A stretch of 64,000 nucleotides of DNA from Leptospiraceae bacterium. Its GTDB lineage: Bacteria > Spirochaetota > Leptospiria > Leptospirales > Leptonemataceae. Below, piece after piece: positions 24,001 through 30,000 of the stretch. Positions within the stretch are counted from its first letter, which is position 1; the number at the start of each line of letters is the position of its first letter. Position numbers: made by a program. The stretch lies in assembly GCA_040217195.1 (NCBI GenBank), contig JAVJNR010000009.1, positions 32,001 through 96,000 on the forward strand, read 5' to 3'.

Positions 24001-27000
24001 TTGACATGGTGATCCGGGCCTGCTGGAAATTTTCCTGGAGTCTTCTTTCCACACCGCCGATGGAGGAAACGTAGTTGCTGTTCTGGTCAATTCCTCGGCC
24101 ATTGTCCAGAACCTGGATTCTTACCTCCTCATCCTGTACGTGTGCTAGTACCTGGATAATTCCATTACTTGTGTAATCCCTTAATCCGTGCTGATAAGCG
24201 TTCTCGATAATTGGCTGGATTGTAAGAGGAGGTATAAAAACCCCGCTAAAATCGCCGTGCCGTTCCATTTCAATGCGAAGATGATCTTCAAAGCGAAATT
24301 GAACCAGCTGACAGTAGCGACGAGAAAATTCCCATTCCTGATCAAATAGAACCAGTCGTCGTTCCATATCGTTGATTAAATACCGGTAATGGGATGCCAG
24401 CATCATGATCGCATCCCCTGCTCTGGGATTTCCTCGTTCGATATAGGAGTGAATCAGATTCAAAGAATTGAAAAGAAAGTGTGGAGCCATCCTTTCTTGA
24501 AGTGTGCGATAGCGATTCTCAGCTACGCTCCTTCCGGATTGATACTTTTGCTCCTGACTTTTTTCCTGAGCCATTCGCAGCTGATTTATCTGCGTCATCA
24601 CAATGACGGCCAGGCCCACCTGAAAGACCAGAAATGTCCATCTGCCTGAAAATGCATTCTCGCCCCAGAGCCCAAAAACAACTCCCAGGTATTCAAACAA
24701 GGCTGAAAGGAAAAATGGCAGCATGGCAAAAAGCAAAATCCATCCCTTGCGGATTCCTCGGAAGATCCAGCCAATGGCGGCCACCATAACTCCCAGAACA
24801 ATAATTGGAGAGGTGGCTCCGGAGTATGCGGCGGCCCAGCCAGCAATATGCATCCCTCCTGCTGTCCAGTTATGACCCAGACTTAGCGCCGCGGCTACAA
24901 ACAATACATAAGAAATCCATCGAATGGATTTAGAATCGAAAATGGATGAAACTAGCCGGGTAAACACTGGAGGAAACATTGCACACCCCACCGAAAACAA
25001 CGCCAGACGAATCAAAGCATTCGGAGCGATGAGCTGTGATATCGATGAAGTACTCAATTGATAGAGAGACATGTTTAGCAGTAGTAGCGACAGATAGAGC
25101 ATCCCCGGCTTTCGCATGGGGGGCCAGAAGAAGAACAATGCCATTCCAGTGATAGAGAGCGCCAGACTGATGGACATGATTCCCAGGTCATCTATTTCGG
25201 ATCTAAAAACATGCTCCAGGACTTCCGATGCAGATCCAATGATCATTGGATCCAGAGGCCCGGCTCTTGCGAAGGAAGGGATGGATCCCAGCTGGAAGCA
25301 AACCGTAATCTCTACACCCCTGTCTGGCAATGGGATAAGATTCCATTCAATGCCCCGGAAGCGGCCCTCTTCCGACGGTGTTTGCCAGACCTGTTCTCCG
25401 TCCAGGTAGACAGTAGCAAGATCATAATAACGACCTAGCCAGAGAGTTGGGTTTCTGGCACCTGATTCCGGTGCGTACCATTGAAAAAGCAATGCCCTGG
25501 AATCGGCAGGTATGTCTGAAATACTGCGAAAGGGAAGGAATCGACTTTTAACTGTCTCCGGTGGTACGACTCTGAGAGACTCCGGGCAATTGGATATCTG
25601 ACGAAAGAACAGGGAATGGTCACTGGCCCTGCGTACCCTGGGCGATGTATTCGAATCACCACATTGAATCGTAAAGAGCGAAATGACAATTGCACTTGTC
25701 ATCAGAGCTGATTTCTTTAGTGTGCTCTGCATACGGATGCTTTGGACCGGTGGTTTGAGTAGAGCAATGAATGCCAGGAACACATGAAATGAAGCAATTT
25801 CGAATTCTATCATTATTTATTTTTATTTGCTTTTTCCTGCCCGGATCGCTGGCAGCCGAGGCAATCTATCTAAGAAATGGGCAGGTGATTTACGGACAGA
25901 TTGTAAATCAAAACACAACCCAGGTTCGTATCCTGACCAAAGAGGGGATGCGAGTCATTCCCAAATCCACAATTGGCCGGATCGATTATGGAGCTACCGA
26001 ACCGAAGCCAGAACCAAAACCGGAACCAAAGCCTGAGCCTAAGCCAGAACCCAGACCAGAGCCAAAACCCGAACCGAAACCAGAACCCAGGCCGGAACCA
26101 AAACCGGAGCCCAGGCCAGAGCCAAAACCGGAACCGGCCTCTAAGCCCACTCTGCTGGGGGCCATGTGGCGAAGTGCTCTACTCCCGGGCTGGGGCCAGT
26201 ATTATCAGGGTCGAACTCAGGCCGCTTATATCTATGGGGGCAGTTTTCTGGCTCTGGCAGGTACCACCGGCATACTTTACCGGGAATTTGAAGTGCAACG
26301 TACTCAATATAACGATGCTGCCACGGATTTCATAAACTATTCACCGCTTGTCGTGAACTATGACTCCGCCGCCGCTCTTGGGCTAGTTACGATTCTATCA
26401 TTGAATAAGCTGGAAGCAACCAGAACCCAGGCAGATCAACTGGCCACCTATGCAAATGTAGGCGCTACGCTTACCCTTGCATTGTATGCCTGGAATTTAA
26501 CGGATCTCTGGCTCTATGAACCTGGAAAGGGTATGCTAACCACTGTTTCGCCCACTCCGGCAGGGGATGGGCTACGACTGGGTTTTCATGTTCGCTTCTG
26601 AACTAAGGGCCGGCCCCAGTAGTTGCCTTTTCAGATTCCGGCCGGTAGATTTCTGCCAGGGTTAGAAAGCGAAAGAAGCTTGATACTTCTTCGGTTTGCA
26701 CCGACTCCACAGTTCCCAGCCATTGCATGCATTCGAACAGAGTCCAGCCTCGAAGCAGTCGAACCAGCAATGCAGCTTCAAAGGACTTCAATTCGCGAAG
26801 ACTGATTGGACCGGACGGACTGCGAAAAATAATCAGCGGCACTTTCTTTTCTTCCTCCGGGTCAAAATCCGACTTTTGTTCTTTCCATGCTTTCCAGCGA
26901 ACAATGGCTGAATGGGAGACGGACAGAAGGGCAATATTTCTGCTAATACCCACCCCTTTTTCTTGATAGAGTTGAGCCTGAATCCATCCACCTCCAGGCC

Positions 27001-30000
27001 TCTGACCGTGGAAGAATCTGTTCTGTAAAAAACAAAGACGGGCTATATCGCTGGCCACAGTATCCCTGCCTTTTAGAAAGGCAGACATGTTATGCCCGTA
27101 ATCGGATAGATTGTAATGCTTCGGTGGATGAGTCTGAATGTACTCTTGAAACCAGTTTAGACAGGAATCATTAATGTCCAGCAGAGGGGCATAGAGTTCC
27201 TCCAGGGCTTCCATCAGCCGGCTTAAGATAGAATCCCTGTAGACATTCATACTCTGCAATGCATTCAGTCCTGGTTGGCCAGCACCCTTCAAGGAATCGT
27301 GAACATCCATTGGTAGCTTTCCTTTGAACAGAGATTCAATGAATCTTTGTTGATCACCGGCCACTTCGCCTGGTTCTCTGTCCGGCAGTGCTTTGGTCAG
27401 GGCCGTGGCCGAATGGATGTTTCTTTCTGGATGCAAAGTCGCGGATGGATTATCTATACTGGCCGGTACCCGGGCAAGTTCCATCAGCTCCATTTCCAGT
27501 TCCGGAAGATCCGGAATGTCCTGATCTCGTTCCAGAAGCAATGGCCTGGGTCCAATGATCTCCAGGGCTCGGGCATACAGGTTTCGCACTTCTGAAGACA
27601 CAGCCTGACCATGAGTGTCGAATCGAATATGTTCCAGGACTTCATGACCGGCTATGTGATACTGCCACACCGATTCCGGACGGATGCCCAGTATGAAATT
27701 CTCGCTATTCATTTCATGATTATGCGCATTCACGGCCACATTATTTATGTCCAGAAGTATTCCGCAACCGGTGCGCTGGCTTACTTCATTTAGAAACTCC
27801 CACTCCTGCATTTCGGAATTGGCCCAGGAAACATAACTGGATACATTTTCCAGCGCGATGCTTCTTCCCAGAAAGCTCTGAACAAAATCCACATTTTCGC
27901 ACAACCGTTTCAACCAGGGCTCACTGTATGAAACAGGAAGCAAATCATGGCTCTGTAGAGCAGGAGTTCTGGTCCAGCAAAGATGATCGCTTACGATGAA
28001 TGGCTCAATCTCCTCGATCAGTAATCTCCATCGTTTCAGGTAATTTTGCATGCTTTCCGGGGATGTCTGGGCGTTTTGCGCCAGGGGGAATAGTTCTGCA
28101 GAGGCGATGGAAAGACTGACTCCATGAAGGGCCACCGGATAATTCCGGCGAACCTGGCGAAGCATGTGTCTGGGCCGACCCAGACTATCCAGGTAGTTTT
28201 CCGTAATGGCTTCAAACCAGGTGGTCTGAACCGGAAGGCCCTGCCTTAGATGCTCGTAGTGCTCCCTGCGAAGTCCCAGTCCCGGGGCATCCATTTCAGG
28301 CGCAGCAGGCCTGACTGTCTCATTACTGGGTTTCATCTGGCGTTTTTTTCAGTCCCATGGCTGCATTCCCGGCCCATTCACCGGTTCTACCGGGCCTGGA
28401 GTGCCCCGGATACGGACAGCAAATTCCAGAAATTCTGGACCGCTCTAACCAGAGCAGCACATTCCAGAATCGGTTCCAGAGACGAATTTGACAACAATTC
28501 TGATTAAAAACCGAGACATAATTCTTTTGACACCGAATGCATGGAAGGCACCCTGTCCTCCCTTGGAGTCCAGGACTGCAAATCCTACTGTGCGATTTAT
28601 TGACCTTTTCGCGGGCATCGGTGGTTTCCGCCTGGCCCTGGAATCGGCCGGGGGTCGATGCGTATTTTCTTCGGAGATTGATTCCTTCAGCCGACGTACC
28701 TACCAGGCGAACTTTGGCGATGAACCGGCAGGCGATATTAAAGAGGTGTCGGCTTCTGAAATCCCGGACCATGAAATCCTGGTAGGCGGTTTTCCCTGCC
28801 AGCCATTTTCCATTGCCGGTGTATCCAAAAAAGGATCCCTGGGACGAGACCATGGGTTCAAAGATTTAACCCAGGGAACGTTGTTCTTTGATATCGCTCG
28901 TATCCTTACAGAGAAAAAGCCTTCGGCCATACTTCTGGAAAATGTTAAGAACCTTAAATCCCATGACCAGGGTCGGACTTTCTCAATTATTCTGAGCACT
29001 TTGCAGGAACTGGGATACACAGTGTTTCATTCCGTGCTGGATGGAAGATACTATGTTCCTCAGCACAGAGAAAGAATCTACATCGTAGGGTTTCACAGAG
29101 ATTCATTTGAAAAACCGCCATTCTTTCGCTTCCCTCAACCTTCAGCCAGTCCACCACCCCTGGGGTCTATTCTGGAGCCGGAGGATGCCATTGAAGATCG
29201 GTACACTATTTCGGATAAACTCTGGCAATGGCATCAGGACTATGCTGTAAAACATAAGGCTCAGGGAAATGGATTTGGATTTGGTCTGGTGGGACCGGAA
29301 GATACAACGCGTACCCTGAGTGCCAGGTATTACAAGGATGGAGCTGAGATCCTCGTGCGTCAGAACGCAAAGAATCCCCGGAAGCTAACTCCCAGGGAAT
29401 GTGCCCGACTTATGGGATTTCCTGACAGTTTCCAGATCCCGGTATCCGATACCCAGGCGTACCGGCAATTCGGTAACTCTGTAGTGGTCCCTCTGGTCAC
29501 CGAGATTGCATCCGAGTTAATGATTTACGTATCCAATGTTGCTTCCTTTTCAGAACCTGCCAGGGCGCTTTGAGGGTAAGGCCCCGGCCAGCGTCTGCTT
29601 GAAGAGTACAGGATTCTTCTTTAAGTTTCTGTCTGCCAATGAAAGTGGGGCCACCGGTTCCCATCAGGCTGGATTCTACATTCACCGGGAAGCCTACTGG
29701 CTATTTATGCCCGAGCCTGGAAAGAAAGGTGAAAATGAATACAGGGATGTAGAAATTCACTGGCCGGATTCCAGTGTAACAGCCAGCCGTTTTCGATGGT
29801 ATGGAAAAGGCACTCGAAGCGAATATCATCTTACACGAGGATTTCATTTTCTGGGCGAAGAGAACACCGGAGATCTACTAATTCTGGCTCGTCTGGAAGA
29901 GGGTATCTTTCAGGGTTTTCTGCTTTCCAGAGAAGAAAATATAGAAGCATTCTTTGAAGAGCTCAGTTTGAATCCATCGGATTCTGGACGAGCCTATGCC

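Follow-up and report, generated by a model that had tools for sequence, protein, structure and literature searches.

Among described systems, the closest counterpart to the locus discussed here is bufferin 2 of Caulobacter vibrioides, reported by Leprevost et al. 2024 (PMC11626156). In the sections of that paper that describe it, the buf2ABC unit combines a six-cysteine Sec precursor of the BufA2 family, a BufB-type MNIO and a DUF2063-RRE partner without DoxX, and all of these traits recur here. In their passages on orphan bufferin precursors, Antoine et al. 2025 (PMC12452194) suggest that these may be modified from another locus, and they put the share of Buf2 carrying lipoprotein signals at about 16%; in their Table 3, none of the 864 complete genomes with Buf2 lacks an MNIO. 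For Turneriella parva a table of the same study gives a single accession under MNIO and again under DUF2063, without comment, and the main-text passages searched make no mention of MNIO-DUF2063 fusions. An engineered HvfB-HvfC fusion is functional, and its activity exceeds that of the two proteins when co-expressed (10.64898/2026.07.17.739211). A literature search with most subscription journals outside its coverage returned neither a natural MNIO-partner fusion nor a maturation in trans like the one proposed below.

The window, that is the whole 64,000-nucleotide stretch analysed, carries the gene g03101 (Table 1). The genome-wide survey's note had read it as an MNIO fused to DUF2063 on one open reading frame, and this is borne out: the frame runs without internal stop, and Pfam places MbnB_TglH_ChrH in its first half and DUF2063 in its second (E 1.1e-9). 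On its sequence, g03101 is a predicted BufBC maturase that nature has made as one chain, a bufferin-type MNIO followed by a full-length DUF2063-RRE partner. The second half corresponds to BufC/PME-type 1 by PF09836 (38.8 vs 27.2 bits), and residues 329–540 are recognised by an HMM built on 74 partners that have genes of their own (E 3.9e-23); the RRE label of its C-terminal region is taken over from the family description (PMC12452194).

An AlphaFold2 model based on a 108-row alignment reaches a pLDDT of 89.1 and a pTM of 0.89. Its fold compares to MbnB, 3bww and TglH with Z 25.7–26.9 and an rmsd of 2.1–3.0 over 241–262 residues. The linker between the halves is a block of low pLDDT, varies in length and retains only 24–30% identity to the genus orthologues. 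Fold searches with the full model return barrel matches only, and the partner half, when modelled from its sequence alone, reaches a pLDDT of 39, too low for use. The active-site set (H71, H118, E163, D196, N199, H227, D240, H242, E269) is invariant in all 108 aligned fused proteins; three of these nine residues can be matched by motif to positions mutated in HvfB, and the other six are expected to be iron ligands, as in MbnB.

Table 1 Features of the g03101 locus and the unlinked precursor gene (window coordinates unless a contig is given).
Feature	Coordinates	Strand	Basis
g03100, LA_0442-type protein with PE[PK] repeats, 276 aa, convergent neighbour	25771..26601	+	
g03101, predicted single-chain BufB-BufC maturase, 577 aa	26603..28336	-	ORF + Pfam
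BufC/PME-type-1 partner half: DUF2063 (residues 329-421), then RRE-type region to about residue 565	26642..27352	-	
Variable inter-domain linker, residues 290-328	27353..27469	-	identity, pLDDT, length variation
MNIO (DUF692) TIM-barrel domain, residues 19-289	27470..28282	-	Pfam E 3.1e-86
C5 methylase (dcm) + EcoRII-like pair, divergent	28488..30765	+	Pfam
Short conserved motif upstream of g03101	28515..28532	-	read by eye
Lepto_8Cys gene	33017-33340		
bufA2, 91 aa, inferred g03101 substrate, outside the window	G000 C1:279670-279945	-	

Membership in the MNIO (DUF692) superfamily is clear (PF05114, 289 bits vs a cut-off of 25, TIM-barrel fold). On the family level, g03101 scores 294 bits against the curated cut-off of 310 of NCBIfam MNIO_BufB (NF050167). 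This is still its best NCBIfam family, followed by HvfB (196 vs a cut-off of 360). The three genus orthologues scanned likewise stay below the BufB cut-off (295–299 bits), and fusions of the sister genus pass it with 332 bits. In an enzyme tree from which six rows were omitted (five long branches, one near-duplicate), the nearest enzymes are split BufB adjoining BufA2 in G002, G013 and G015 (90/96), and the g03101 clade is divergent and sits on a long branch; a quick tree sets g03101 apart from BufA1-linked enzymes and HvfB. Of 13 genes compared it evolves fastest (55–62% identity), with an intact frame and a dN/dS of about 0.32 for G036–G040.

In the genome under study (G000), g03101 lies on C8, a closed 234-kb chromid with parAB, metF, ahcY, pyk and serC, and the precursor gene bufA2 lies on C1, the main chromosome. 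C8 and C9 are closed circles by a 141-nt terminal overlap that none of the other eight contigs shows. The genome holds two MNIO matches, just where the survey's note had placed them, and two DUF2063 matches: the C8 fusion and hvfB/hvfC on C9. C9 is a phage-plasmid that carries parAB along with terminase, portal, major head and tail sheath genes. The C9 terminase has no match with Pfam Terminase_6N and was found with PHROGs. With precursor and fused enzyme on C1 and C8, G000 falls outside the definition of a bufABC cluster.

The bufferin precursor itself proved longer than reported. Full-length BufA2 has 91 residues, and the earlier 74-residue call drops most of its signal peptide; the count of seven cysteines stands, and one of them, C22, forms part of the far end of the signal, which was judged by eye. 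The protein meets NF050166 (Buf_6/12Cys) with 72.1 vs 60 bits, and its six conserved cysteines are invariant in 18 of 18 aligned rows. C22 follows a hydrophobic stretch and is kept in all five genus copies, in a lipobox that by eye is non-canonical; BufA2 of G000 is probably a lipoprotein. The precursor HMM yields a single match among 112,530 frames of G000, and with one BufA2 and no BufA1 over cut-off, this remains the only bufferin precursor detected there. Within the genus BufA2 is conserved at 91–96% with synonymous sites near saturation (dN 0.04–0.06, dS >1 or saturated), which indicates strong purifying selection. Its loop reads C-H-T-K. In every clustered precursor examined from Leptospirales the loop is C-G-G, and these form a group that excludes it (82/84, a weak split from 47 columns). 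The closest core outside the genus, 73% identical over 41 residues, belongs to the sister genus, where bufA2 lies directly upstream of the fused gene. The neighbours of bufA2 in G000 are fumC and betaine methyltransferases, without connection to metals; stand-alone bufA2 of other genera adjoins CusA-, CopA-, multicopper-oxidase- and CDF-type genes. DoxX has six matches in G000, none near bufA2 or g03101.

The same layout extends through the genus. All seven genomes carry one fused MNIO, and five carry one BufA2, always unlinked to the fusion; the remaining two, assemblies of 77% and 58% completeness, are missing the entire locus of the precursor. G035, G037 and G038 have no MNIO other than the fusion, which in G035 lies on a 225-kb contig, with the precursor on one of 4.86 Mb. 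The fused frames that the survey's note listed for G035, G036, G037 and G026 exist, but the fused gene of G026 is no orphan: there, as in G025, bufA2 lies directly upstream. Across the 156 genomes of the order searched, MNIO is present in 63, and BufA2 exceeds its cut-off in 48, all with MNIO, and in none of the 93 without; these genomes are kin and the counts not independent. MNIO-DUF2063 fusions are widespread, and outside this clade the precursor is adjacent in 19 of 20. A candidate fusion in G022 was rejected, as the partner there has its own frame. On a single origin for the fusions of genus and sister genus the trees of the two halves disagree, and the AU test rejects it with neither half (p-AU 0.083, MNIO; 0.354, partner).

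The fused enzyme is encoded on the chromid, and the only matching peptide by a solitary gene of the main chromosome, so the two most likely act together from separate replicons. We give a rough probability of 0.7 to the reading, drawn from comparative genomics, that g03101 acts in trans on chromosomal BufA2. The survey's note had argued this from absence alone; it is now favoured by the genus-wide split layout, the genomes with the fusion as sole MNIO, the complete co-occurrence in 48 genomes and the purifying selection on the precursor. Against it speak the C-H-T-K loop, an enzyme that evolves fast and falls short of the BufB cut-off, the SigF-type motif missing before both genes, and the bufA2 neighbourhood in G000. 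In such a pathway the partner half would bind the BufA2 precursor in the cytoplasm, and the iron centre would, with O2, convert C45, C51, C58 and C64 into 5-thiooxazoles, a chemistry carried over from the family. The modified peptide would exit by Sec, probably be lipidated at C22 as family members suggest, close its C39-C77 disulfide and, again by analogy, bind copper at the membrane. As to its history, the bufA2 copy next to bufBC was probably lost in this lineage and a stand-alone paralog retained, which would leave enzyme and substrate unlinked; 'split operon' is perhaps the wrong description, and bufA2 may well be such a retained paralog.

A SigF-type motif precedes 20 of 23 clustered precursors, but is absent upstream of all five genus bufA2 and all six fused genes, which lends no support to shared control of the two; the motif scan is still compatible with regulation. 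Both genes apparently stand outside the SigF regulon. A sigF-nrsF-like pair lies 50 kb from bufA2 in G000, an intergenic SigF scan of that genome missed the known hvfA site, and scans for sigma-70 promoters and terminators stayed at chance level. It is a tentative and rather doubtful extension that an inducible copper-stress operon became a standing two-replicon pathway, with a SigF-free chromid maturase and a lipid-anchored thiooxazole metalloprotein, whose near-invariant sequence would then point to a housekeeping role, periplasmic copper buffering or hand-over, rather than emergency detoxification; if true, this would be a direct case of inter-replicon bufferin maturation by a natural single-chain enzyme.

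Could the substrate lie beside the enzyme after all? The flanks are as previously described, with a 151-bp gap between the methylase/EcoRII-like pair, a conserved neighbour (82–88% identity in G035 and G036), and the longest-ORF start of g03101. A 24-codon frame ending in two cysteines opens upstream in G000 when read by eye, yet it is not conserved and the G039 enzyme starts at the same ATG. Read by eye, the short upstream motif is kept in G000 and in all six printed loci of the genus that extend far enough. The ATG within it serves as start codon of the enzyme in G039, and in G038 the frame of the enzyme opens with it. A check of 117 small Cys-containing ORFs between window positions 17 and 38 kb found no conserved hidden precursor: the 11 that recur in at least three of four genus loci are known genes or antisense shadows. 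The HMM that places a bufferin precursor beside the enzyme at 75 of the 80 closest genome loci has only the one match in G000 and found none near g03101. The survey's suggestion that g03100 is an odd substrate was rejected, since in all four orthologues its cysteines are confined to the first 20 residues, the signal peptide. A substrate next to g03101 is therefore very improbable. A different or additional one of an undescribed class, such as a small Cys-rich secreted protein, would suit the divergence of the g03101 clade, and Lepto_8Cys, syntenic in the genus and 4.7 kb away, is one candidate; 46 small Cys-rich secreted-like ORFs exist genome-wide by a crude filter that missed both positive controls (BufA2, HvfA). 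Lepto_8Cys, though, is present in 34 of the 42 genomes of the family, among them 17 of the 21 that have no MNIO at all, and the 75 loci just mentioned point to bufferin precursors, so we regard this as quite unlikely.

The enzyme may also have lost a clustered C-G-G precursor of its own and be a decaying or redirected orphan, BufA2 working unmodified as a disulfide-bonded lipoprotein. The loop mismatch, the long branch, the low score and the contrast between a fast enzyme and a near-invariant peptide would fit, and the orphan passages of PMC12452194 leave room for unlinked precursors that stay unmodified. Nevertheless, frame and nine active-site residues are kept genus-wide while synonymous sites are saturated, partner halves evolve fast in clustered systems too (49–64% where the enzyme has 68–83%), precursors with K-T and N-T loops lie in clusters beside related enzymes of other phyla, and no MNIO-less genome has BufA2 over cut-off; we consider such decay unlikely. 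Complete HvfBC sets in G000 and G036 could in principle mature BufA2 in place of the fusion, but BufA2 is kept without HvfBC in G035, G037 and G038, and HvfBC of C9 comes with an EGKCG precursor and a SigF-type promoter of its own, which makes this highly improbable.

With this pair, the published question of whether stand-alone bufferin precursors are matured from another locus becomes testable with two genes; the precursor is single, and in three genomes so is the enzyme, which leaves no paralogs to confound the answer. As MNIO-partner pairs assemble poorly and the engineered fusion is more active, natural BufB-BufC fusions would be handy reagents. For genome mining, neighbourhood rules would miss 8 of the 48 BufA2-positive genomes of the order, where the precursor lies more than 3 kb from an MNIO.

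How new is this arrangement? Compared with buf2ABC as described (PMC11626156), BufB and BufC form one chain here, precursor and enzyme sit on different replicons, and the precursor is probably a lipoprotein, with no SigF-type motif found upstream. The engineered HvfBC in its description (10.64898/2026.07.17.739211) has the same order, MNIO then partner, and its essential HvfB residues N175, D242 and H244 correspond by motif to N199, D240 and H242; however, it is artificial, has no linker and acts on an oxazolin substrate, while g03101 occurs in nature and joins its halves by a linker of some 40 residues. ChrH, MovX and the DAG-RiPPs, in the sections that treat them (PMC13056109; MovX: PMC12452194), also join an MNIO to an accessory domain and include precursors using the lipoprotein pathway, yet they belong to different subfamilies with different chemistry, their precursors are clustered, and the fused part is a helical bundle or winged helix rather than a whole DUF2063-RRE protein. 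The survey's note overrated the novelty, as stand-alone precursors and off-locus modification are in print in the passages of PMC12452194 and fusions are common. Rather than a new system, the pair is most likely a known one in rearranged form; it probably shares chemistry and function with the bufferins already described, and is the less surprising for it. The stand-alone Buf2 of Antoine et al. share with it a precursor gene unlinked to the MNIO gene, but those passages discuss orphans mainly as extra copies; new here is that a sole precursor and the sole enzyme that matches it lie apart throughout the genus, a pair stably split across replicons.

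The fusion reported by the genome-wide survey's note is real: g03101 is a single open frame carrying both Pfam domains, MbnB_TglH_ChrH at residues 19–289 (E 3.1e-86) and DUF2063 at residues 329–421 (E 1.1e-9). Its best NCBIfam family is the oxidase family MNIO_BufB, where 294 bits miss the cut-off of 310. A profile HMM of 74 partners encoded as separate genes aligns to residues 329–540 (E 3.9e-23), while the reverse HMM reaches at least position 200 of 253 in 74/76 such partners. Judged by these profiles, the protein is a whole BufB and a whole BufC in one chain. Its AlphaFold2 model is confident throughout (pLDDT 89.1, pTM 0.89), and a fold search pairs its barrel with MbnB, 3bww and TglH (Z 25.7–26.9). 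Nine residues (H71, H118, E163, D196, N199, H227, D240, H242, E269) are invariant in all 108 aligned fused proteins and in 8/8 clade members. Three of them correspond by motif to HvfB positions that the enzyme cannot lose and stay active, and the other six would serve as iron ligands, as in MbnB. An engineered HvfB–HvfC fusion with the domain order of g03101 is active and beats the co-expressed pair (10.64898/2026.07.17.739211).

Such MNIO–DUF2063 fusions are common. Both domains occur in 114/120 homologues among the matches listed (Verrucomicrobia, Omnitrophica and Archangium are among the source names), though this is no frequency, since the search could return only proteins of 317–1010 aa; fused loci account for 7/80 genome loci and 16/80 metagenome loci. 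A precursor is adjacent at 19/20 fused loci outside the g03101 clade (some are near-duplicates) and at 69/73 split loci. Within the order, fused frames are found in two genera only (9/72 matches), for which one common fusion event is possible, with p-AU values of 0.083 for the MNIO half and 0.354 for the partner half. In the sister genus bufA2 lies directly upstream of the fused gene, and the nearest enzymes to g03101 in the tree are split BufB with adjacent BufA2 (support 90/96). As for the literature, the main-text passages of PMC12452194 on 'fusion' or 'fused' do not mention this type, while its genome table gives at least one accession, from Turneriella parva, under both MNIO and DUF2063. 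The parts of PMC12141560 and PMC13097082 consulted add nothing on natural fusions, and PMC13056109 describes lipidated MNIO products and a ChrH domain fusion. No description of a natural MNIO–partner fusion or of trans maturation as here was found in literature whose coverage leaves out most subscription journals.

The precursor on contig C1, for which 74 aa had been claimed, is in fact 91 aa long. It scores 72.1 bits against the BufA2 family NF050166 (cut-off 60), and six of its cysteines are the Buf2 set (chemistry in PMC11626156). The seventh, C22, closes the hydrophobic signal and is kept in 5/5 genus copies, which makes a lipoprotein the probable product, judged by eye from a non-canonical lipobox; lipoprotein signals are reported in 16% of Buf2 (PMC12452194). 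It is the sole bufferin precursor of the genome, with one NF050166 match and no DUF2282 over cut-off, and a family-built HMM finds one match in 112,530 frames (E 4e-37; next 0.15). BufA2 is 91–96% identical among this genome and the congeners G035 and G036 (dN 0.04–0.06, dS >1 or saturated).

Beside g03101 itself there is, as the note held, no precursor. The blank is meaningful because the same HMM set finds a neighbouring precursor at 75/80 related genome loci. Among 117 small Cys-containing ORFs at window 17–38 kb, 11 recur in at least 3/4 genus loci, and each of these is either a known gene or an antisense shadow. The convergent neighbour g03100, feared to be an odd substrate, has no Cys beyond residue 20 in 4/4 orthologues, and a Lepto_8Cys gene 4.7 kb away is present in 34/42 family genomes, including 17/21 without MNIO.

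We consider that g03101 acts in trans on the distant BufA2, with a probability of about 0.72, a reading backed by genus layout, MNIO co-occurrence and precursor conservation. The fused gene occurs in 7/7 genus genomes, flanked by the methylase on one side and the orthologue of g03100 on the other wherever a contig shows both; for g03101 itself the flanks are those first given. One BufA2 is found in 5/7, where fumC and an unknown gene border it on one side and betaine methyltransferases on the other; the two genomes without it, of 77% and 58% completeness, miss this whole locus. In G035 the enzyme gene is carried by a 225-kb contig that has a parB of its own, the precursor gene by one of 4.86 Mb. 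The fusion is the sole MNIO of G035, G037 and G038, which removes maturation by the plasmid HvfBC as an explanation. The enzyme's dN/dS, ~0.32 for G036 vs G040, speaks for the pairing too. Of the 156 genomes searched in the order, which include kin and are thus not independent, 63 carry an MNIO and 48 a BufA2 above the threshold, and every BufA2 carrier is one of the 63; this agrees with a published count of 0/864 complete genomes with Buf2 but without MNIO (PMC12452194 Table 3).

The findings also leave room for a BufA2 that stays unmodified and an enzyme left without the substrate it once had. In the order, clustered precursors share a C-G-G loop and form one group (support 82/84 from only 47 columns), whereas the C1 loop is C-H-T-K, as in stand-alone paralogs of two other genera, which adjoin CusA-, CopA-, multicopper-oxidase- and CDF-type genes. 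Moreover, g03101 changes fastest in a comparison of 13 genes (55–62% identity), but partner halves change fast in clustered systems too. Given the loop likeness, and since 18 genomes carry at least one stand-alone paralog on top of a clustered copy, the genus may have lost its clustered copy and kept a paralog rather than broken an operon, a history that would still imply action in trans. A SigF-type motif precedes 20/23 clustered precursors and the plasmid hvfA; the motif scan found none before 5/5 genus bufA2 and 6/6 fused genes, and a sigF-nrsF-like pair is present in 7/7 genus genomes.

Features discussed and their positions
Feature	Location	Remarks
g03101	window 26603-28336 (-)	577 aa
bufA2	C1 279670-279945 (-)
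bfd-like ferredoxin, bacterioferritin	window 31535-31801 and 32053-32532	3-4 kb from g03101; syntenic in genus
C5 methylase and EcoRII-like pair	window 28488-30765	in place across species, 82-88% identity
720-aa protein	window 21752-23914	metallo-beta-lactamase-like part (weak Apyc1/RNase Z matches), two cNMP-binding domains
TatD-like, UbiA-like, DHQ-synthase-like gene row	window 52375-56692
Metal island, closed 82-kb phage-plasmid	G000 C9 1-14000 (L097, L001)	RND pump, hvfABC with SigF-type promoter, merR-merT-merA-like genes
Split bufB-bufC then GDSL hydrolase	L014, L015, L024, L025 (G016, G014, G013, G015)	precursor not found nearby; second kind of orphan
Stand-alone C-H-T-type bufA2	L210-L212 (G135, G126, G144)	directly behind CusA/CzcA-type pump gene
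MNIO-partner loci, precursor not detected	L099, L104, L127, L149, L267	Bdellovibrio, Taibaiella, Rickettsiella records, one fused metagenome locus
BufA2-like secreted peptide	L049 ~1300-1900 (-), G041	4 Cys only, His/Gly-rich tail

Gene families of the genome, like the source name given for one homologue, indicate a Leptospirales lineage. Among the ten contigs, only C8 and C9 show a 141-nt terminal overlap. Calling C8, which carries g03101, a chromid is fair because it has its own parAB plus metF, ahcY, pyk and serC. C9 likewise proved a phage-plasmid with hvfABC, carrying terminase, portal, head and tail-sheath genes and parAB; hvfABC sits beside the mer-like genes, a ZupT-like gene lies near the other end, and the plasmid may borrow host SigF. 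G036 has an hvfB matching that of C9. Around g03101, the methylase/EcoRII-like pair has saturated synonymous sites and is unusually stable for a restriction-modification system, and the 720-aa protein is 90–95% conserved in the genus. A link of the bfd-like/bacterioferritin pair to the iron supply of g03101 is only a guess. The TatD-like gene row resembles an ebo-type cluster.

Order-wide, 8/48 BufA2-positive genomes lack a precursor gene closer than 3 kb to an MNIO: five of the genus, G014, G016 and G058; the last is assembled in 730 contigs, and a contig break may explain the missing linkage. G014 and G016, which carry two stand-alone bufA2 apiece, have no MNIO besides the GDSL-linked bufB-bufC. 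The five tabulated MNIO–partner loci without a detected precursor are candidates for a split layout like that of g03101. G135, G126 and G144 also carry clustered SigF-type bufABC; G041 (78% complete) has no MNIO match, and its peptide is the one weak BufA2 match seen in a genome lacking MNIO.

Many stand-alone bufferin precursors have been reported, with the suggestion that a distantly encoded enzyme may modify them or that they stay unmodified (Antoine et al. 2025, PMC12452194). The pair described here offers a clean two-gene test of trans modification, and g03101 is of value as a natural single-chain enzyme. Compared with known systems, g03101 and the C1 BufA2 do not form a bufABC cluster and the enzyme falls below the BufB cut-off, but they would work like a Buf2 bufferin system.
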